Virus record (IMG/VR): IMGVR_UViG_3300042258_000071
Location: 32,001 to 96,000 of that record
From: a virus
Taxonomy: Duplodnaviria; Caudoviricetes
Reading direction: 5' to 3' (one strand)
Length of the DNA stretch: 64,000 nt
Part shown: piece by piece, positions 10,830-27,818 of the stretch
Layout of the letters: each line of letters begins with the position of its first letter
Numbering within the stretch: the stretch's first letter is position 1
The notes under the pieces: generated by a model
The model's input: the letters and a program-made list of their open reading frames with translations, nothing else
What the model was told of the DNA's origin: nothing
Databases searched by the model: none
Translations under genes and position numbers: made by a program

Positions 10830-11220
10830 AATGCTTTACTATAAGATAACTCTTATATTTTATCTATTATTTCCAATTAAATTTTTTAAATCATACACTT
10901 TTAAAAGGTTTCATTAAAAATTTCTTATAGAGTACTGCGTTGATTTTTGATTTGAAATTAATTTGAATTTGTAATTTTATTATTTTGAATTTTGGTTTTG
11001 AAATTTGTATAGAGTTATATCTAGTATAATTATTATAACATAGTTATGTCTTCGAATATATTAAATAATTAAAGTAACCGTCGCTTGACGTTTTAGAGGT
11101 TTTGAAAAATAATGAAAAATCCCCTAATAATAATTTAAATTATACATTTGTATTATTATATTTAAACATTCACTCATTTAGAGGTGTTTTATCTTCAAAT
11201 TTCTAAAATATATATTTCAT
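10830..11220. other. Extremely AT-rich non-coding tract
   Basis: About 390 nt with no ORF and repeated (A)ATTTG/TTTTG units. Confidence 0.5.
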
Positions 11221-11274
11221 GAAAGTGAAGCTTAGTATAGAGACTGTAAGTTGAAATGAGAGAAAGTATTTAAA

Positions 11275-11841
11275 ATGAAAGACATTTCTAAAGGACATTA
11301 TTTTGGAATATGTGCAAGAGTTAATTGTCATCACGAATATGCTATCTGGAAGAATAAACATACTAACACGTATTATTGTTCTAGATGTGCAGAGCATCTT
11401 AATGAAGATATCACTACCAAGAAAGATGCTAGGAGACTATATACAACACCTAACATGTTTCATCTTGACATCCCACCTAGTGGATATGCTTTATATGTTG
11501 GAAAGCAGTATTCTACTTGTTTAGAATCTATATATACAAAAGTAACAACACTAGAAGAGATTTCTCATATCTTTAAATTACGGGGATGTCCGGATGTCAT
11601 TGACATTGACTGGGATTTTACATCTGTTGTAGACCTTCTAGATCTTATCATACAGACACATTCTAACGACACATCTTTTAGTATGAAGGAATTTCCACTA
11701 CTCATTTTCATCACCTGTAAAATCAATAATGTTCTCACGTGTAAATTATCGAATATAGCTGTTAATAATTATCATGAAACTGTAACACGAATTAGTGTCA
11801 CTGAGCTTAAGAGACGCTACCGGGAACTTATGGAGTATTGA
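11275..11841 (+). CDS. Cys-motif (Zn-finger-like) protein with a possible degenerate receiver-like C-terminal domain
   Basis: CARVNC...YYCSRCA at the N-terminus; RGCPDVIDIDWDF further along. Confidence 0.55.
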   Translation: MKDISKGHYFGICARVNCHHEYAIWKNKHTNTYYCSRCAEHLNEDITTKKDARRLYTTPNMFHLDIPPSGYALYVGKQYSTCLESIYTKVTTLEEISHIFKLRGCPDVIDIDWDFTSVVDLLDLIIQTHSNDTSFSMKEFPLLIFITCKINNVLTCKLSNIAVNNYHETVTRISVTELKRRYRELMEY

Positions 11842-18294: not shown

Positions 18295-19740
18295 TTAAGT
18301 ATCAAAATACATGGAGACGACTTCATCCTCAAGAGTGTGCATAACGCGTTCACCAACTCCCATCACAAATGGAGAGTAGATGATACGGTCATTCACAGCA
18401 GTCGCTCCAAAGAACATATCAATATCATCCCCACTCTCTGTCTTGGCCTGACTTGGCATGATAGCCCCGATAACAGTCTTAGCTTGTGCACCAATAACAA
18501 GTTTATCCCCAGGGCCACATTGAAGATCTTCATCGATCATGATCGTGATCATGACTGTATCTTCTTCAAAGTCTACACCCTGATACTTAGTCCCTACAGG
18601 GATACGGTGTGGGGGAAGGTATTGACGTTCTTTAGACGTTCCACGTACCTCTTTACTTTTCTTTAAGAGTTGAGATGATGTTTTCTTAACAAGCTCTTGA
18701 ATAGAAGGGTGTAAGTCTTCAAAGGGACATGCATGATAGACACGGATAGCTGCGATCGTTCCATGATACTTAGCAGTTGGCATGGAGCGGTTAAGGGATG
18801 CTAGGAATTCCATGGTCTCGGGATCATCGATACTGTCCATAGAATTCAAATCTCCCTCCTCCATGATCATCAAATAATCTGTTGTTTCAACAACATCCCC
18901 AACCTTCACGATGTTAGTAAGCAGGGTATTATTTGTAATTGAAATAGTACGAAGATGTGCAGGTGACATGTGAAGACGTTTAGAAAAGTTAGAAGATATT
19001 TCACAAGAATCTTCAATTGTTTCAGATTTCTCAATAAGAGCAATTTTTGCTGTAAGACCATGTTTCCAGTTCACCTGTTTAGAATCAGGATCTTTCTCAA
19101 AGAACCCACTGTTGTAAACGAGGATATCACCCTTCTTAAACTTCTCACCCTCTTTAACATTGAGGACATTGGTCTGTTTAAGATAGGTTCCAGAAACACT
19201 TGTAAAGGATTCCCCAAAGGAGAAGATTTCAAATTGTTCAGATTCTTTATGTTTCTTAGGTGACAGTCTAATGTAAACAACAGGGCCTTCTTTGAGTTCT
19301 CGAAACTCTTTCTGTGTTAACATTGATGTGTCAGGGACATCTTCAAGTGATTTAAAGGGAAGTTTCTCAACAACTTCAAAAGGTGAAGTGTCATTTACAT
19401 TGACAACATTTCCCTGTTTAATCTTAGAAGCATCTTTGTCAGAACGAATCATGTAGATGAAGGTGTTGTTATCATAAGCTTTTTTTATATCGTCTTTCTT
19501 GATATTTAAAGATACTTCTTTAGAAGTTTTAATTTGTTCAAGATCATATTCTAATTTAAGAAGACCTAGCTTCTCATTAATACCAATAACTTTCCCATTA
19601 CGCTTAGCAGCGCATGCAAAATTCTCAGATGGGTAATGTGCAATAACTTGCTCCATACCCGTTCTGATTCGAAGAGTTTCACCTTCTTGAGATGGTACAT
19701 GATGAGAGAGCTGGATAGAACAAAATGACAGGCGTTTCCC
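18295..19740 (-). CDS. rpoB: Virion RNA polymerase beta-like subunit (phiKZ gp178-like), exon 2
   Basis: Begins GKRLSFCSIQLSHHVP (cf. beta DDANRALMG..MQRQAVP). Contains VKEGEKFKKGDIL, EDSCEISS, GDKLV...KTVI and DIDMFF. Confidence 0.88.
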   Translation of the reverse strand, partial: GKRLSFCSIQLSHHVPSQEGETLRIRTGMEQVIAHYPSENFACAAKRNGKVIGINEKLGLLKLEYDLEQIKTSKEVSLNIKKDDIKKAYDNNTFIYMIRSDKDASKIKQGNVVNVNDTSPFEVVEKLPFKSLEDVPDTSMLTQKEFRELKEGPVVYIRLSPKKHKESEQFEIFSFGESFTSVSGTYLKQTNVLNVKEGEKFKKGDILVYNSGFFEKDPDSKQVNWKHGLTAKIALIEKSETIEDSCEISSNFSKRLHMSPAHLRTISITNNTLLTNIVKVGDVVETTDYLMIMEEGDLNSMDSIDDPETMEFLASLNRSMPTAKYHGTIAAIRVYHACPFEDLHPSIQELVKKTSSQLLKKSKEVRGTSKERQYLPPHRIPVGTKYQGVDFEEDTVMITIMIDEDLQCGPGDKLVIGAQAKTVIGAIMPSQAKTESGDDIDMFFGATAVNDRIIYSPFVMGVGERVMHTLEDEVVSMYFDT

Positions 19741-20095
19741 CGTACTATTCCATAAAGGTTCGGTATCTCCTTCATGCGCAGCATAACCTGCAGCTATGGC
19801 TTTCACCATAGACTAGATCATATCTTTACCTTGAGTCATATGACTGTTAGGTAACTCCCATTTCGAGACCCCTTGGTCCTACAGGCTGACAAAGCCTTGA
19901 TCGTTGAACGTTCATCTTAAGGATGTCTCACGACAGTCTTAAGACACTTCGCTGCTGGTTGCCCAATCTTCACATTTTTCAAACTATCACGCTTGTCGTT
20001 ACCAACTACGTTGTAGTATGTAAAGCTCTAAGGGGGTTCTAGCAATTAGAGAGCATTCACTTAAAACTTTTCAGTTAAAAGCGGACAAATAGTTT
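19741..20095 (-). ncRNA. Group I intron (IA-like, 355 nt, no ORF) in the RNAP beta-like gene
   Basis: 5' exon ends in U (GAC GAU) and the intron ends in G. P AAUUGCUAGAA, Q AACCAGCAGC, R GUUCAACGAUCA, S AAGAUAUGAUCU; GAAA-capped P2 and P9; P7.1/P7.2 hairpins. Splicing gives in-frame TQDD-GKRLSF. Confidence 0.9.
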
Positions 20096-23000
20096 ATCGT
20101 CTTGAGTGCCACCTGGCATAAGAAGAGCTGGTGTACTTAGAATGTTAGAAGGTTCTAAATCGCTAGAAGCCTGCTGTTCACCATACATCCCTCGGGTGTT
20201 AATAATGCGAGGGTTTGCAGACATGTAGGCATTAAAAGCAACTTTTCCAGAATCAGGTACAGACTCAGAAAGAATTCCTACACCATCTTTAGGATACTGA
20301 CGATCCGTAATCACAAATGATTGTTGCGACCGACCACCGGCACCCCCATATGTTGTTTGTGTTTTAGATTTGATATCATGAATGGGGTTAATACTGTCAA
20401 CTGGTTGTAGAGTAGGATCTTGAACAATAGATAGGAAAACTGCTTCAGGGTTGATAGAGAAACTCTTATTAGGATCACGACTAGCTTGATATCGAGCAAA
20501 TTCACGTGCCATAGCGTTATAAACGAAATATGGGAATCGTTCATATCCGCGTGTTCTAAAGTTTTCTAAACTAGAAGCATCTTTTGCTTCCACTGTTGAG
20601 AGCATTTCTGTTGCTCGATACAGGAGACCCTTAACTGTAGTAGGTTCCCCCATGCTAATCAAAACTTCCCGTGTAATAGGATCTACAAATAGATCAAAAA
20701 AACTGTTGATCCCTTTTAGAATATTTGTAGAGTGACCTGCATCAGAGAGTAGTGTGAAGTAAGTATCGACGATATCAAAATCGTCAAGATTCCAAGCTCT
20801 CGTTTCAAAGCGCTTAAGGCCACTTAAAATAAGAGACCCTGTAAGAGGGTATCTTGAAAAGACAAGTTTCCCATCTTTAAAGGGGATCATGATGTCATCT
20901 AGTTTAACAATAGCCCGTTTACCTGTTGGGTAAAACCTATAGGGGTGTTTAATATCTTTAAGAAGTGTTGAGAGACCAAATCGATATCCTAAGAAAAATG
21001 CAATCGGCCATGATTTATCTTGAAGTTTAATCTCAACCCATTCAGAAGGTGTTTTAGAAAGAGGAATCTGATCCCCATACAAAGTATTTAGAAGCTCTCG
21101 TATGGTAAACATCTCAACTGGGTGATCTTTGTCTTTGACACTGATAACGCGAATGATGTTATCTTTACCATAGAACATACTGTCACCATTCTTCTCACCA
21201 CAGAAAACCCCATATTTTTCTTCTAGAGGTTCACGGTACTTTTGAAGGAGACTACTTTGGTCTATTGCTTCAGTTGCAAGTTGAAGAGTTGTTGCAGTAA
21301 GACGATTTTTATAATTAAATGTGAAATGATAATCGTTTAATTTAAGACGACCATAACTCCCCATGAGGACCCCATAATCATACGGGACCTTATCTTCGGT
21401 AGAACTTGTTCCAAATTCAAGATAAATAAGACCTGCCTTCTTAAGAGAGGAGATGTATTTCTTGATACTAGATTTAAAGCTATATGCTGCGCGTTGAGTT
21501 CTTTCTACAAGTGCTTTATTAAAATTAGATGAAAGGTTAACACGATGAGGACTTACTTTGCAGATCGGTAGATTGATCTGTTGCTTCGTCATTCGATAGT
21601 CCACCCCATTGACCCTAATGGTTCCTTCCGGACTCACAATAGGTAGTCTAAAACGACACGTATGTCGCTTTCCCTTGGGATCTTTAAAAGTTATGGTGTA
21701 ATGCCTAATATAATTAAACTCAGTAATTTCATCTTCTTCTTTAACGTCTTGAAGTATCATCCCAACGCCACTAAAAGAAGATAAAACAAGGGCAACATCT
21801 CGGTTGAGAGATTCTCGAATATAAACATTGTCAAAATCCATAATAGAAGATTTCGTCATGGATTTATCTTCAACATAATCTTCTAAGAAAGAGAGTTCTA
21901 CTGATGGATCAGTGTTAGGTTCCGTGTTGAGATATGACGCAATGCTTCTACCAGCAAGATCGATATTGGCATAATGGTTCTCAGCTTCTAAGACCGTTTC
22001 TTTCTGTTTAGAAGTGAGGTTAAGATTCGGATCATTTAAGATGCTTTTAAGTGATGTTGAAATATATTCATTGTGGTCTGGAGCATCCACATAAGAACTT
22101 ACAGGAAGAGGGTCTTCTGGGAGTAAAGATTTAGTGTCAATTGTTGAGAGGTCTGTACTTTGATAAAGAGTGTGTTCAATGGGGAGATCTGTTGGGTCTA
22201 CCGGAACATCTTCTACGTCATCGGCGTCCTCCATGACATCCGTTAAAGTAGAAGTTACACTATCTGCAAATTTATCAATATCTTCATCTGTAAAGTCATC
22301 GTCTAAATTTTGAGTAGTGTCGTCCTCATTTCTAGGTTCAGATTGATTATCTTTCTTTTCTTTAAGGTCTTCAAGAAGGTCAGCTGCTTTAAACTTCATG
22401 ACGTTAACATGTCGAATCATCATGATGTTGTCAGTTTTATTAGGCAACATTAAAGGGAGATCACCAAGATTATAGATGATACCATCTGATGACTGTCCAC
22501 ATGTTAAAATGACATGGATGCGATCAAGATGATCTTTTATATCAGGAATCTTAAAAAGGGAGGTTGTAGCATTCTGAGTTACAATCCCTAGCAAATGGAT
22601 CATGTAGTAATACGAGGGATCCCCTACAACCTTAAGGGATGCAGGCGTAATTTCCTCAAAAGCTCTTAGGAACTGTTCACGTTTAAGGGGTTCTGCTGAA
22701 ATAGGAATTTGAATGAACTGGAGTTTCTCAGGATGACTTTCTGCAATTTTAAGTATTTGATACAACATGGATTTCAAAAGAAGATCCATCTTACGATAAG
22801 CTACAAGTCGACCTGTCATGTAAGTATACAAGAGCGGGTTGTAACTAAAAATGGATAATGCATTTTTACGAGATAAGATCTGTTTTACATCTGTCATACG
22901 TTTTGTAAGTTTACTTGTCTGATTGAATTTTTGAATTTGACTGTTAAATTTTACAGCATTGTGAATGTAGTTTCCAATTGGTGCTAACTGTTTATCATCT

Positions 23001-23275
23001 TTTGGAGGGAGTTCTGTTACATGATGGGCATAGACCGGAAATTCTTCATTTACAATAAAGGGATTAGAAACATCGATTGAGATAGCGCCAGACTCGGTTA
23101 AAAACAATTTATCTGCAATATGCAGTACACTATCAAAGGGAAGTTGTGCATTGCTAAAGTCTGAGATTTTCTTAGGAAGATCCGATCTCCGCCACGCCAT
23201 ATACCCCCTACGAAACACTGGGTACTGCATTCTTTCTTGTGCGATCTGATCACGTTCTAAAATGTTGTCATCCAT
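20096..23275 (-). CDS. rpoB: Virion RNA polymerase beta-like subunit, exon 1 (spliced product about 1541 aa)
   Basis: Start ATG 23275 with an AGGAG RBS. Contains GTIRVNG, QQINLPICKV, INPIHDIK, TYGGAGGRS, SESVPDSGKV and ALLMPGGTQDD. Confidence 0.88.
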
Positions 23276-23364
23276 AGTTATACTCCTATTAAAATATATA
23301 CCTACACATAAAAGTATAGGGGAAGCATCATACCATACATCGGTGCGTGTCATCTATATTTAGA

Positions 23365-23382
23365 TATATATTACTATTTTGA
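23365..23382 (+). promoter_or_regulatory. Putative early promoter TATATATTACTATTTTGA
   Basis: Identical to the 11893 copy; 21 nt before ORF 23404. Confidence 0.7.
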
Positions 23383-23403
23383 ATTGTCGCAAGGAGACTG
23401 ACA

Positions 23404-23967
23404 ATGAACGTTTGGAATTGGATTAAATCTTTCACTAAACAAAATGAGGGGGTCCCAAAATTTATCGCTAATCCTCATAACCAAAAAGTTCCTGAGCAAG
23501 AAATTTTTCAGGAACTTGAGGCCGTAACTTCTCAGTTCCCACTAATACTCAAAGCCGATGGTGATGTTTCAAAACGTTCACCGATATATCTCACTCTTCA
23601 ACAGGCGAATTTTACTGAAGATGATCTTGGAAATCCTGTATCTTCCAGTGTGATCTTGGAAAAGATGGGGAGGGTCCCTATTTTAAATATATTTGATCAA
23701 ACAGATATAATCATTTCCAAAAATTACCTCAAGATTGGAAAGTTGGCAAATGATTCATTGCTTATTCGAGTCAATTGCCGAATCAAACTTGAGGGTTCTA
23801 ATGAAGACATGTCTGATCACCTTACGATGGTGGTCCCTCCCTCCCGTAAAGAGGACGTGCACGATGTTCTCATTACATATGCCGGTAAGCATCTGGAAGG
23901 TGGAATCTCCGACATCAAATGGGAAAAACGCGTTCTTAACGTTCTTAAAGCATTACCCACAACTTGA
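23404..23967 (+). CDS. Hypothetical early protein
   Basis: 187 aa; AAGGAG RBS. Confidence 0.75.
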   Translation: MNVWNWIKSFTKQNEGVPKFIANPHNQKVPEQEIFQELEAVTSQFPLILKADGDVSKRSPIYLTLQQANFTEDDLGNPVSSSVILEKMGRVPILNIFDQTDIIISKNYLKIGKLANDSLLIRVNCRIKLEGSNEDMSDHLTMVVPPSRKEDVHDVLITYAGKHLEGGISDIKWEKRVLNVLKALPTT

Positions 23968-23970
23968 AAC

Positions 23971-24006
23971 ATACAAGCATGGTGGGATTTCCCACCATGC
24001 TTGTAT
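23971..24006. terminator. Long palindromic stem-loop
   Basis: ATACAAGCATGGTGGGA-TT-TCCCACCATGCTTGTAT. Confidence 0.7.
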
Positions 24007-24042
24007 TTATGCATTTGCAGCACCAATGACGTATGGAGAACT

Positions 24043-24300
24043 ATGGGTTTAATGTCATATAAGGAGAGTGACTCAACAGACTCTGATAGTTATGACCTTA
24101 ACTTGAGGATATCTGAGCTTATATTGTTTTACAAATTTTTAATGAAATATCCAACACTAAACCCTTCCATTGATCAGTATATCCATGATTGTGAAAGGAT
24201 CGACTCTTTGAAATTTATCATCCCATCTGAACTCTATAATCATGCGACAGCCATATTAAATAACGTGGCGCAGGAACATGGGTTCTTCTTCGAAAGGTAA
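24043..24300 (+). CDS. Small hypothetical protein
   Basis: GGAG upstream of ATG 24043/24052. Confidence 0.6.
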   Translation: MGLMSYKESDSTDSDSYDLNLRISELILFYKFLMKYPTLNPSIDQYIHDCERIDSLKFIIPSELYNHATAILNNVAQEHGFFFER

Positions 24301-24306
24301 TCTCTT

Positions 24307-25224
24307 ATGTCAGCATTTTCAACCATGTCTAAAGTAGCAGCTGGTGCAACCGCATTCACCGGGGTCTATTATGGCTTCAAAGTCGGAAGTTATATTTTTA
24401 AAGAAAATACGTTCCGGAGTATGTCAAATGAAATATACTGGGAGAATCTTAAGAAAATATTAACAATAATATTTTCCGCATCATCTCGCACGGGGGTGAC
24501 TCTTCCCGATGGATTATGGGTTGAAACCATCAAACTTGCGTGGATAAGGAGTCTTGGAGATGGATTTGCGCCTAAAACCAACCCGTCAGTGCAAGAACAG
24601 CGGGTAATTGCGGTTACGCTCGTCGAGGAAATCTTCGAGAAAATCATCGAGAAAATTGAGCTTAAGAGTGCATATGAGAAAATCAGTTATGCCCATAAGG
24701 GTCTCTCTAACACATCGTGCCCAGCACCCCATGGGTGGCAGGGTTTCATCGATGAGTTCTTTACCGAGAAGGGTTATGAGATTCCTGTAAATGAGCAAGG
24801 CCCTTATTGGGGGCAGCTTGAGTTCATTTATGAGATCCTTGTAGCTGCAACACCGCGTTCGCAGGTCGTGCTAAACGATGGTGCTTGGGAGGGGATCTTG
24901 GGTATGGTTCTTGAAAATATGACACCTGAAGATCAGGAACTTCATGCCGATCCAAGGAGTCATCGATTGCTCCACATTGCTCTTATTGAGCATGTCTACG
25001 AACGCTTGATCAAAAATGTCGGTCTCAATGTTGCGTATAACCGAATTTGCTATGCGCATAAAAATCTTAATGACAAGTCTTGTCCGGCACATTGCGGCTG
25101 GGATAAGTTTATCGAAACCTTCTTTGAAGAGAAAGGTTTGAAATTCGAATCTGACGACGACATATCACCCCCATCAAACAAAGGTCTTCATGAGACCGTA
25201 TCACGAGGAGGTTCCTCATCATGA
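24307..25224 (+). CDS. Membrane-anchored protein with a tandemly duplicated ~120-aa domain
   Basis: N-terminal hydrophobic stretch, then YAHKGLSNTSCPAPHGWQGFIDEFFTEKG and YAHKNLNDKSCPAHCGWDKFIETFFEEKG. Confidence 0.75.
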   Translation: MSAFSTMSKVAAGATAFTGVYYGFKVGSYIFKENTFRSMSNEIYWENLKKILTIIFSASSRTGVTLPDGLWVETIKLAWIRSLGDGFAPKTNPSVQEQRVIAVTLVEEIFEKIIEKIELKSAYEKISYAHKGLSNTSCPAPHGWQGFIDEFFTEKGYEIPVNEQGPYWGQLEFIYEILVAATPRSQVVLNDGAWEGILGMVLENMTPEDQELHADPRSHRLLHIALIEHVYERLIKNVGLNVAYNRICYAHKNLNDKSCPAHCGWDKFIETFFEEKGLKFESDDDISPPSNKGLHETVSRGGSSS

Positions 25225-25409
25225 ATTTTGCATTCTGGTTCGTCTTTCTCGGACTGATGCCTGCCCTCGCCATTTTCATCTTTGAGACAGTGTGCTGGGT
25301 ATTGCGGCGCATCAATCGTGACGATGCGAATGACGATGTCGAACATGCCGATGAGGCATATTTAAAAGAGTCCCTACTCTTGAAGAATTCTACGTTCTTC
25401 AGAAAATAG
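25221..25409 (+). CDS. Small membrane protein
   Basis: 62 aa; N-terminal TM; ATGA overlap with the previous gene; GAGGAGG RBS. Confidence 0.65.
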   Translation: MNFAFWFVFLGLMPALAIFIFETVCWVLRRINRDDANDDVEHADEAYLKESLLLKNSTFFRK

Positions 25410-25416
25410 GGAACCC

Positions 25417-25449
25417 ATATGGGGGACCCTTTCTTAGGGTCCCCCATAT
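25417..25449 (+). terminator. Stem-loop with U-tract
   Basis: ATATGGGGGACCCT-TTCTT-AGGGTCCCCCATAT followed by a T run. Confidence 0.75.
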
Positions 25450-25475
25450 TTTTTTTCAATGGTATGATACGAGAG

Positions 25476-25670
25476 ATGCAGCTCGTCCACTTCTATATGT
25501 ATCGATCCGACATGACACCTCAAATTCTTGCGGTCCATATCGCTTTTATATTGCTGTTTCTAGGATTTATAGGATTCTTTGTAGCAATGATTTTTTACGC
25601 ATATAAGAGCGGTGATATAGAAGAGTTTTACACTGACCTTCTCAAGTTCTTTTTCCTTAGAAAGACATAG
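25476..25670 (+). CDS. Small membrane protein
   Basis: One long hydrophobic segment; start uncertain (25476 or 25512). Confidence 0.5.
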   Translation: MQLVHFYMYRSDMTPQILAVHIAFILLFLGFIGFFVAMIFYAYKSGDIEEFYTDLLKFFFLRKT

Positions 25671-25674
25671 AGAT

Positions 25675-25706
25675 AGATAAGAGAGGGGGTGCCCCCTCTC
25701 TTATCT
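25675..25706. terminator. Long palindromic stem-loop between convergent genes
   Basis: AGATAAGAGAGGGGG-TG-CCCCCTCTCTTATCT. Confidence 0.75.
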
Positions 25707-25709
25707 CTA

Positions 25710-25898
25710 TTATACATTTTTAAGAGGATTTTGATAGGTCATCTGAATCATCATAAGGTCTATCATATCACTAAACGTTCCCTTTAAGAACTTACCTTCA
25801 GGAGTTAGAAATGATCTTGGACTTTCCATGTATTCAGACAGTTCACGTGTAGTGTCTTCACCCCAAATGTAATTCACAGATGAAGTATCCCCATCATA
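25710..25898 (-). CDS. rpoC: Virion RNA polymerase beta'-like subunit, exon 2 (missing from the ORF track)
   Basis: 63 codons: YDGDTSSVNYIWGEDTTRELSEYMESPRSFLTPEGKFLKGTFSDMIDLMMIQMTYQNPLKNV*. Completes the catalytic ADYDGD motif. Confidence 0.88.
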   Translation of the reverse strand, partial: YDGDTSSVNYIWGEDTTRELSEYMESPRSFLTPEGKFLKGTFSDMIDLMMIQMTYQNPLKNV

Positions 25899-26261
25899 CC
25901 TTTATATTCCATAAAGGATCGGTCGCCCCTTATGCGCAGCATAACCTGCAGCTATGACTTTCATCATAGAGTAGACTATATCTTCACTATAGGTTGTGTG
26001 GTGTAACCCTTAAGTGTCTCCTATTTCGGGTCCCTTGACCCTACTCCCCGCTACGGGATAGTCGTTGAACGTTCACCATACTACTGTCGTCACGACATGT
26101 ATAAGGCGCTTCGCTGCTGATCATCCATTGTAACATTTGATACCTTTTTGAACTATCACGCTCACCTTTTCAGGTCACGTTGTAGTGTATCAACTTTAGG
26201 ACTTTCCAGCAATTAAGGAGATATCATCTTAGCTATTTCTAACTAAGTGGACTATCAATTA
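25899..26261 (-). ncRNA. Group I intron (IA-like, 363 nt, no ORF) inside the RNAP catalytic motif
   Basis: Exon ends GCU GAU and the intron ends ...AAAGG. P AAUUGCUGGAAA, Q GAUCAGCAGC, R GUUCAACGACUA, S AAGAUAUAGUCU; P3 UCUCCU/AGGAGA; a plausible P1 with U.G at the splice site. Confidence 0.92.
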
Positions 26262-27818
26262 ATCAGCTCCAAGCCCCCCAAGGGCACTTGTATGAACAAT
26301 CGTACTATCTAAAAATCCGTCATTAGCATCTAAAGATGGATAATGTGGATACTCAGCATCGTCCTCACCTGTAATGAGGTCATACAGTTTAACGGTGCGA
26401 GAGTTGGATGTTGAGTTAAGGTGTATTTTAGCAGGATAACATGATCCATCTTCAATAGCAGGGTACCGCGTCACCATAGCGTATTTATTAAATGTGGCGA
26501 TATACGTTGCAAGATATACGATCTCAGCCCATGTGATGGGGCGGAGTTTTGTACGATCAACTTTTTTACCTAAATTCTTCTCAAGATCGCCAAGACTCCT
26601 AACGATGGAAATTCGATCACCTTGATCATATACCAAGCAAAGGTAGAAAGGTTTCTTATCACGATTATAAATAGTGACAGCTGACCGTCGAACATCTTCA
26701 TTTGAGAACCGAGTTAACCACTTGTTAATACCTGTCCTTGTAACGAATTTATCTTTTTCTAATTGAGAGATTTCTGTATATACAAGATTTAAAGTTTTAG
26801 GATCAGTGAGAGGAACATTAACCTCATCACTCTCTCCTAAGATGGGGGTGAAAAACGCTGTCTTAAGATGGTGGATAACGAAGGGCTCCATCCCTTTGCA
26901 GGATTGATAAAGTCCTACCATAACTTCATCAGGTTTAAGAGACCGTGGATCATCAGGAGAATCCATCACATAACTTGCAGCACTTAGAACATTACGAGTT
27001 CCAAATGCCACTGAACGTGATCCATACCCACCATTTTGCATGAATCCTCGTTTACCAGTTTGGAAGTTCTCAAGGTAATCATAAACTTCAATAGCTTTCT
27101 CTTGAAGTTTATATCGAACTTGATTATAAATAGGGTTAACTGTTTTTTCTGGAATAGATAAACTTAAAGATATCATACTCCGATAGAGCTTGTTTATTTC
27201 ATCTTGCACCATGCGCGCACCAGACTCGATTCGAATATCTCGAAATCCTGCAGGAAGAACGATGTACTTATTAATAAGAGAAACCTCTCGATACTGATTT
27301 AAGAGGGTGACTCGGTTTTCACGTTTGAGGGATTCTGTTAAAGGAAATTCAATTTCATGATAGTGCGATAAGAAGAACGCATAACCTGTTCCGGCATCTT
27401 CAACATCCTCTGGATCCCCAACAACACGTTCAAAATTTTTTATCTCAGAGTTAAATGTTGCATAAACACGCCCTGCTAAAATGTCGTCATACAGAGAACT
27501 TATTTTGATGAGATTTTTATAAATAATAGGAGCGATGATGTTACTGCTTAGAGGGAGGAACCCAAATTTCTTCATGCGATCATCTGAACCCACTGCCCCA
27601 AAGATTTCTTCTGAGAAGAGACCGTCTTTATGAAAGAGCGTTGTTGATGGTTCTAAGACATCAAATGACGTTACCGCTGCAATAATATTTTTCTGAACAA
27701 AGTCATCTACATCCATAACGCGGATGTTAAAAGGTCCATAACCGGAATTTTTCATATTCGATAAATCTTCAAGCCCTTTAGACCGATTCACAATATCGAA
27801 TGGAATTTGCTGTACCAT
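26262..27818 (-). CDS. rpoC: Virion RNA polymerase beta'-like subunit (phiKZ gp180-like), exon 1 (spliced product about 581 aa)
   Basis: DGLFSEEIFG, VLPAGFRD, GKRGFMQ, GTRNVLSA and VTRYPA; ends GLGAD at the intron. Confidence 0.9.

Follow-up and report, generated by a model that had tools for sequence, protein, structure and literature searches.

The 64,000-nucleotide stretch of DNA analysed here (the window) comprises bases 32001-96000 of the complete IMG/VR virus record IMGVR_UViG_3300042258_000071, which is 236,443 bp long, has direct terminal repeats, recurs in wastewater metagenomes and belongs to an uncultured phiKZ-like jumbo phage. Two genes in this window, which encode the beta subunit and the N-terminal beta' subunit of the virion RNA polymerase (vRNAP), are each interrupted by a group I intron of subgroup IA2 without an open reading frame (ORF), and three further introns of the same kind are found elsewhere in the genome. 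It is likely that these five introns are selfish, self-splicing elements of a type that homes between related phages, that the one in the beta' gene has lost its homing endonuclease gene (HEG), and that the copies recombine with each other.

Introns A and B in the vRNAP genes

The two introns of the window, termed A and B, and the exons and intron parts that belong to them are as follows, with the basis of each assignment in brackets.

19741..20095, minus strand: intron A, of 355 nt, interrupting the vRNAP beta gene; group I, subgroup IA2, no ORF (Rfam, reading frame, junction alignment)
20096..23353, minus strand: exon 1 of vRNAP beta, ending ..LLMPGGTQDD, with the start codon at 23353 or 23275 (phrog_3148, ORF list)
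18295..19740, minus strand: exon 2 of vRNAP beta, starting GKRLSFCSIQLSHHVP, stop codon included (phrog_3148, junction alignment)
20083..20095, minus strand: intron side of P1 and guide of intron A (read from the sequence)
19741..19793, minus strand: 3' extension of intron A past the Rfam model, with the P9.1 hairpin (GCAG/CUGC), the P9.2 hairpin and a 10-nt tail with the terminal G (helices 15 and 16, compensatory changes in five copies)
25899..26261, minus strand: intron B, of 363 nt, interrupting the gene of the vRNAP beta' N-terminal subunit; group I, subgroup IA2, no ORF (Rfam, frame, junction alignment)
26262..27818, minus strand: exon 1 of the vRNAP beta' N-terminal subunit, 519 aa (phrog_2986, E 5.5e-131)
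25710..25898, minus strand: exon 2 of vRNAP beta', 62 aa and stop, starting YDGDTSSVNY (stop-to-stop frame, alignment to the C-terminus of PhiPA3 gp212)
26249..26261, minus strand: intron side of P1 and guide of intron B, UAAUUGAUAGUCC (read from the sequence)
25899..25951, minus strand: 3' extension of intron B (P9.1, P9.2, tail), homologous to that of intron A (alignment, covariation)

Both introns score above the gathering threshold of the Rfam model RF00028 (50 bits), intron A at 19794-20105 of the minus strand with 71.3 bits (E 4e-16, full model 1-253) and intron B at 25952-26270 of the minus strand with 88.3 bits (E 3e-21, full model). The boundaries were set by the reading frame together with a U at position -1 and a terminal G. 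The 3' ends of the Rfam matches themselves, 19794 and 25952, were rejected as splice sites, as they lie some 55 nt short of the real ends and would yield frameshifts and stops. Also two other candidates for the 3' splice site of intron A, ..GGAAUAG^ and ..UAUGG^ (the caret marks a splice or insertion site), were discarded because they either violate the rule of U(-1) and terminal G or insert residues that are absent from uninterrupted homologues.

With these boundaries, intron A starts behind a GAU codon (..GGTQDD^) and ends with the terminal G (..GUACG^GGGAAA), and excision joins ..LLMPGGTQDD to the start of exon 2 and thereby restores QDD^GKRLSF, a junction peptide that aligns without a gap to the uninterrupted phiKZ gp178 (..HDD PKRINFISIQ). 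The 1092-aa frame of exon 1 matches phrog_3148, "RNA polymerase beta subunit", at profile positions 2-1051 of 1424 (E 7e-175), and the 481-aa frame of exon 2 matches the C-terminal end of the same profile up to position 1420 of 1424 (E 8e-86). As judged from the alignments, the insertion is placed right after the two conserved Asp residues of the beta subunit, the HDD motif, which in Escherichia coli reads HDD^ANRALMG. Intron B likewise follows a GAU codon, that of the first Asp of the Mg-binding motif DFDGD (..GLGAD^YDGDT..); its excision joins ..ALGGLGAD to YDGDTSSVNY and restores GAD^YDGD, in a gapless alignment to the uninterrupted PhiPA3 gp212 (..LTADFDGDT; ..LTADFDGDTVSFN). The best tblastn matches of beta' exon 1 are the virion RNA polymerase beta' subunits of Goslar, N1M2, OBP, phiKZ (gp180) and PhiPA3 (gp212), at about 33% identity. 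As each intron lies inside a conserved catalytic motif of an essential gene, splicing would be needed before a working subunit can be made.

At the 5' ends, both introns have the pairing typical of group I: the exon-terminal U(-1) forms a wobble pair with G+10 of the internal guide, the following UC pairs with the exon GA (U with A(-2) and C with G(-3) in intron B), and the bases on the 5' side of that G pair with the start of the intron (UUU with AAA in intron A). At the 3' ends there is the terminal G, from which excision restores the frame. Reading on from the exon, a stop is met after six codons in intron A, and intron B opens with an in-frame UAA; the longest stop-free stretches are 44 aa in A and 42 aa in B, and hence neither intron contains an endonuclease gene, the hallmark of homing introns. 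An earlier note on this DNA, made from the sequence alone, had given the same outer ends to both introns (19741-20095 and 25899-26261), had placed both behind a GAU Asp codon of a catalytic motif, and had found no homing endonuclease in either, all of which agrees with the present results.

Five mosaic copies in one genome

The earlier note had regarded introns A and B as twins that interrupt one enzyme, and had proposed a genome search for more copies. A scan of the complete 236-kb genome detected five group I introns in all, none of which contains an ORF. The three additional ones, which are all located outside the window, are:

Genome 104658-105020, plus strand: intron C, in the TOPRIM DxD motif of topoisomerase II (IMTDAD^SHGKHI)
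Genome 10922-11364, plus strand: intron D, in the second RNAP beta gene (DRFGT^KGIECQVVP)
Genome 231171-231553, plus strand: intron E, in the second RNAP beta' gene (NPSI^QKGALQLFF)

At the junction of intron D, the PHROG profile coordinates are continuous (403^404), and intron E sits about 30 codons before the NGDYDGD motif of the second beta' subunit. In D and E, the P1 loop carries hairpin extensions of 30-60 nt at the place where relatives have an HNH gene. The introns are thus not confined to a single enzyme, as both RNA polymerases of the phage and its topoisomerase II are interrupted.

All five copies fit a common structure of 16 helices, including the P3/P7 pseudoknot and the additional 3' hairpins P9.1 and P9.2. 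In the five-copy alignment, 93.2% of the cells pair, versus 35-41% in slid controls, and compensatory changes occur in 47 of the 99 pairs, a value that none of 500 shuffles reached; covariation supports the core from P3 to P9. P7 reads GAUCA/UGAUC in A and E and GACUA/UAGUC in B, C and D, and the covariation of P7.2 that had been noticed earlier (GGACC/GGUCU in A versus GGGUC/GACCC in B) is real. The presence of P7.1 and P7.2 (helices 11 and 12) between P7 and the 3' strand of P3, both with compensatory changes, assigns the introns to subgroup IA2. By their paired positions and compensatory changes, all five copies look like working ribozymes.

The homology of A and B was already recognised in the earlier note and is borne out by blastn (E 1e-42, 69% identity over 333 nt; 67-69% overall). 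The shared strings quoted there are present; CAGCAGCGAAG and GAACGTTCAACGA belong to the general features of a large IA2 family in phages, for which the matches listed comprise more than 114 IMG/VR stretches. The two introns are nevertheless no twin pair, as the closest kin of A is E: pairwise identities are 81% for A and E, 72-75% for B and C, and 70-72% for B and E, with D being the most distant copy. In a tree of 39 introns, for which relatives were collected with an nhmmer profile, A and E are sisters (support 100/96) and group together with D and the Goslar intron (97/93), whereas the partner of B is its orthologue in another phage (100/100), followed by C (84/82). Such a phylogeny had been suggested as a check on the kinship of the two introns; it places the five copies of the genome within one weakly supported cluster, but they do not form one clade, and the Goslar intron nests among them. 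By path length and blast score, the copies of this genome are mutually nearest except for the orthologue of B (101-305 bits among the own copies, 105-146 bits for the best foreign intron).

Similarity is distributed very unevenly along the introns. P8 is 100% identical in C and E but only 29-51% identical elsewhere, P9.1 is 100% identical across A, B and E, P6 is 89-93% identical among B, C and E, the P5 extension is 85% identical in A and C, and P7.1 is 94% identical in A and E. Since the copies share segments of 100% identity, an exchange within the genome is real, and the patchwork of identical segments points to recombination between the copies, in which case the similarity of whole introns overstates their common descent.

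In Logan contigs of wastewater runs, contigs end or switch inside introns A and B (25961 and 26093 are two such points), and A and B also attract pieces of other copies. Being repeats, the segments that the introns have in common break short-read assemblies at these loci and can create false "joints". One such joint of 6.2 kb, 19991>26198, was dismissed as a contig of another intron copy that matches parts of A and B. The contigs of four runs contained only paralogue cross-mapping and breaks at the introns, and no intronless allele was found in them.

The guide sequence GUCC, located just before P2, is conserved across the wider family, and its GUC is present in every copy of this genome. Four of these copies follow an exon that ends in GAU (D follows ACU), as do all eight of the A- and B-site introns of other phages that were checked. 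In intron E the GAU is out of frame (UCG AU^U), so that the rule acts on nucleotides and not on the protein. Because the guide GUC(C) pairs with GAU, which in frame is an Asp codon, insertions come to lie behind Asp codons, such as those of the metal-binding motifs DD, DxD and DFDGD.

Known insertion sites and the origin of the introns

The intron type and both insertion sites of the window are already known from PhiPA3 and phiKZ. The vRNAP beta intron of PhiPA3 follows two conserved Asp residues that correspond to D674/D675 of E. coli RpoB (Birkholz et al. 2024, PMC11620839). PhiPA3 gp211 ends with ..MNDD and is followed by the HNH gene gp210, the ribozyme core and the sequence MKRVGFISIQ, which is exactly the site of intron A (..MNDD^MKRVGFISIQ in PhiPA3, ..TQDD^GKRLSFCSIQ here). 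The intron between gp211 and gp209 also has the GUCC guide, P7.1 and P7.2, the tail with P9.1 and P9.2, and a 5' exon that ends with GAUGAU, but it encodes the HNH nicking endonuclease gp210, whereas intron A has no ORF. Its core is only about 66-67% identical to those of the phage described here, and it is nearer to the topoisomerase intron C than to A.

The site of intron B is occupied in phiKZ, where gp180 ends with ..LGAD and is followed by gp179, an intron core and an unannotated exon FDGDTVSFN. The layout is the same in Goslar, with an annotated Intron_gpI at the gp206 locus, and PhiPA3 is uninterrupted there. Like intron B, the introns of phiKZ gp179 and Goslar gp206 follow the first Asp of DFDGD, precede a short second exon of about 55-62 aa and have an IA2-type core, which is about 65% identical to that of B; unlike intron B, which has a P1 loop of 5 nt, they contain an ORF of 357-490 aa right after exon 1. 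The phiKZ gp72 intron corresponds to the site of D, and the gp56 intron lies near but not at the site of E, which itself is uninterrupted in phiKZ.

For intron B, the closest relative found is L125, a Logan contig of run SRR22428450 whose beta' subunit is 77% identical at the amino acid level. Its intron is at the same site, and the core is 89-92% identical to that of B, including the tail with P9.1 and P9.2 and the terminal ..AUAUAAAGG, but between the 5' splice site and the guide, in the P1 loop, it carries a gene of about 1.1 kb for a 362-aa protein with HNH_3 and NUMOD4 domains, where B has its 5-nt loop. HEG-type ORFs are found in the B-site introns of phiKZ, Goslar, L125, L132 and L133, which are all five of the others at this site with DNA available downstream of exon 1. 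As the orthologue in L125 and the other B-site introns have the gene at the same place, intron B is most likely a derivative that has lost its HEG. ORF-less introns at these sites exist in other phages too: one of 342 nt at TNDD^ASRVNF in a relative with 32% identity (L135), and one at the B site (L134).

Occupancy of these sites is patchy, as is typical of mobile introns. Among 116 beta' homologues (P0001-P0116), the DxDGD motif is continuous in 52, and at least 18 stop at G[AG]D^; the beta homologues are likewise either split after DD or unsplit. Other truncated beta' gene calls among these homologues end after the second or third Asp, with a large group ending in ..GDHDG. Within five codons, introns thus seem to have inserted independently at several points, which would make the DFDGD motif a hotspot with several insertion positions.

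A comparable case is the Staphylococcus phage Twort, for which multiple related ORF-less group I introns in orf142 and nrdE have been described (Landthaler & Shub 1999, cited in PMC11878797). Twort, too, has several short, related, endonuclease-free IA2 introns in essential genes of one large virulent phage, but three of them are in one structural gene and others in genes of nucleotide metabolism, whereas the copies described here are spread over five genes, four of which encode RNA polymerase subunits, and show clear segment swapping.

In the preferred reading, introns A to E are selfish elements of a mobile intron family that is widespread in phiKZ-like phages. GTP would attack after the U.G pair in P1, and the exons would then be ligated after the terminal G. 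The introns would have entered by endonuclease-driven homing between co-infecting relatives, with at least B having later lost its HNH gene, and they would be kept since only an exact deletion is tolerated at a catalytic codon. Within the genome, copies would swap segments by recombination and hence look like close kin, and the pairing of the guide 5'-GUC(C) with the exon 5'-GAU would steer the family to metal-binding motifs, behind whose Asp codons it inserts. Occupation of a site would probably have the side benefit of closing it to the corresponding endonucleases of competing phages. Some points weigh against this reading. The splicing of the five introns is deduced from their sequences and not observed; no RNA run is listed for the stretch, all six of its runs being wastewater DNA assemblies, and in the conditions of a published long-read transcriptome of phiKZ, the RNAP introns predicted for that phage were not seen to be spliced (PMC10914365). 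That the B site underwent HEG loss in B, and not a gain in the relatives, is a matter of parsimony only. The immunity to endonucleases is plausible but assumed from general homing logic. Finally, site-specific homing by itself does not readily account for five similar copies at sites that are not homologous.

This last point leads to the intragenomic spread that had been proposed in the earlier note. As similar copies occupy non-homologous sites, one of which (that of E) has no intron in phiKZ, one ectopic move or more must be assumed, and for the pair A and E at its unrelated sites, where the exon flanks share only CGAU, a reverse splicing guided by GUC is a reasonable, unproven route. A founder could have been copied in this way into GAU sites throughout the genome and then been fixed by reverse transcription or recombination, and the sister relation of A and E, the GAU that ends four of the five sites together with the guide in all copies, the lack of any encoded endonuclease that could drive homing at the DNA level, and the mutual proximity of the own copies by blast score are in line with it. 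To our knowledge, a transposition by reverse splicing has never been shown in a phage. The five copies are moreover not monophyletic, with the Goslar intron nesting with A, E and D and with B pairing with a foreign orthologue, the A, B and D sites hold divergent family members in other phages, as independent homing predicts, and recombination between copies alone can yield high similarity. What stands of the intragenomic spread are thus the 100%-identical shared segments and the proximity of the own copies, and what speaks against it are the known homing sites and the HEG-bearing orthologue of B, on account of which homing from other phages with subsequent HEG loss explains B at least as well. 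As a general explanation, transposition by reverse splicing is therefore doubtful, but it may hold for some copies, A and E especially, with homing accounting for the others. Slightly more doubtful still is a self-maintaining family of five copies, in which GUC-guided reverse splicing into GAU sites and gene conversion would be combined with a standing immunity at five loci against the HNH "weapons" of relatives; if this were true, the phage would have kept the shield and dropped the sword.

Mobilisation in trans by a free-standing endonuclease, which had also been considered in the earlier note, is quite improbable. The search for free-standing HNH and GIY-YIG genes suggested there turned up one HNH gene but no GIY-YIG gene: the sole endonuclease-like gene of the genome encodes an intact 409-aa protein with an HNH_3 domain and several HTH domains (genome 97498-98727, plus strand), and it lies just outside the window, flanked by the genes of an RNAP subunit (phrog_2962) and a DNA helicase. 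Classical HNH, GIY-YIG, NUMOD4, LAGLIDADG_3, Endonuclease_7 and T5orf172 families were not found in the genome, and tblastn of the genome for homologues of phiKZ gp179 and Goslar gp206 found none. The enzyme could cut intronless alleles of co-infecting phages and so mobilise the ORF-less introns, and in T4-like phages, free-standing endonucleases that mobilise neighbouring or ORF-less elements are known. However, the five exon contexts that this one enzyme would need to recognise are unrelated and have no more than GAU in common, the adjoining gene and not a distant locus is the usual target of a free-standing HEG, and beyond the HNH motif the protein has no significant similarity to phiKZ gp179, Goslar gp206 or the intron HNH of L125 (the match to the latter is at the motif only, E 0.03).

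Least probable is the shared checkpoint that had been envisaged for vRNAP synthesis, in which splicing would be tuned by GTP, Mg or the phage nucleus or cytoplasm, would time or dose polymerase synthesis, and would be what the introns are selected for. Four of the five introns are in RNAP subunit genes of both polymerases and all five have an intact fold, which would suit such a role, and the literature describes a dependence of T4 intron splicing on translation and growth state and an "on-switch" idea for Bastillevirinae introns (discussed in PMC10914365 and PMC11878797). As 52 of the 116 homologous beta' genes have no intron in DFDGD, however, and thus about half of these homologues are uninterrupted, the polymerase can do without such gating; PhiPA3 and phiKZ are each missing one of the two vRNAP introns, and it is selfish spread that typically leaves sites patchily occupied, with HEGs in some cases. 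The remaining suggestion of the earlier note, a protection of conserved sites from the endonucleases of competitors, is plausible, as it would follow from homing logic and from the work on PhiPA3 and phiKZ, and a published precedent exists.

The phage and its place in an arms race

The whole 6.8-kb region was compared by megablast with 50,697 phage records, none of which matched, so that the phage is without a close relative in culture; an IMG/VR search with the beta' exon resulted in no confirmed relative, and the beta' homologues were taken from a protein database. The genome has two sets of split multisubunit RNA polymerase genes, with PHROG RNAP families assigned to six ORFs, and a synteny like that of gp181-gp180-gp178, including a 1951-aa gene that adjoins the beta' gene divergently, as does gp181 in phiKZ. 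Both traits are those of the Chimalliviridae, the phiKZ-like jumbo phages that form a nucleus. Pfam contained no family that matched the RNAP exons, whereas PHROGs did match them. A 540-aa ORF (genome 228215-229837, plus strand) is encoded directly upstream of the second beta' gene, which is the position of chimallin, the protein of the nuclear shell, according to the gp54-gp55 synteny of phiKZ; its similarity to phiKZ gp54 is only marginal (E 0.04), and it has no match in Pfam or PHROG.

Between the two minus-strand vRNAP genes, which adjoin each other in phiKZ, there is a cassette of four plus-strand ORFs (187, 99, 305 and 83 aa; window 23404-25670), for none of which a Pfam or PHROG family was found. 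The 305-aa protein has an internal duplication (..YAHKGLSNTSCPAPHGWQGFIDEFFTEKG.. and ..YAHKNLNDKSCPAHCGWDKFIETFFEEKG..). In the relative with 77% identity, small ORFs on the opposite strand are found at the place of the cassette. A perfect G+C-rich inverted repeat at about 25676-25706 of the window (GATAAGAGAGGGGG.C.CCCCCTCTCTTATC), between the convergent ends of beta' exon 2 and the ORF of 83 aa, is probably a two-way terminator.

For the annotation of this genome, it follows that both vRNAP core genes are intact, neither split nor truncated. Introns in RNAP genes of phiKZ-like phages have recently drawn attention, as the intron endonuclease of PhiPA3 is a weapon against co-infecting phiKZ. 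The phage described here represents the other end of this arms race, in that introns which look functional but have no endonuclease fill the two known vRNAP target sites and three others. What is added to the known intron type and sites are the mosaic family of five copies, the pair of orthologues with and without HEG, and the rule that GUC targets GAU. Since a close relative keeps the enzyme at one site, the two phages are a natural pair for testing whether an ORF-less intron protects, the five mosaic copies are material for studying recombination between introns, and the rule of GUC with GAU predicts possible landing sites of the family.

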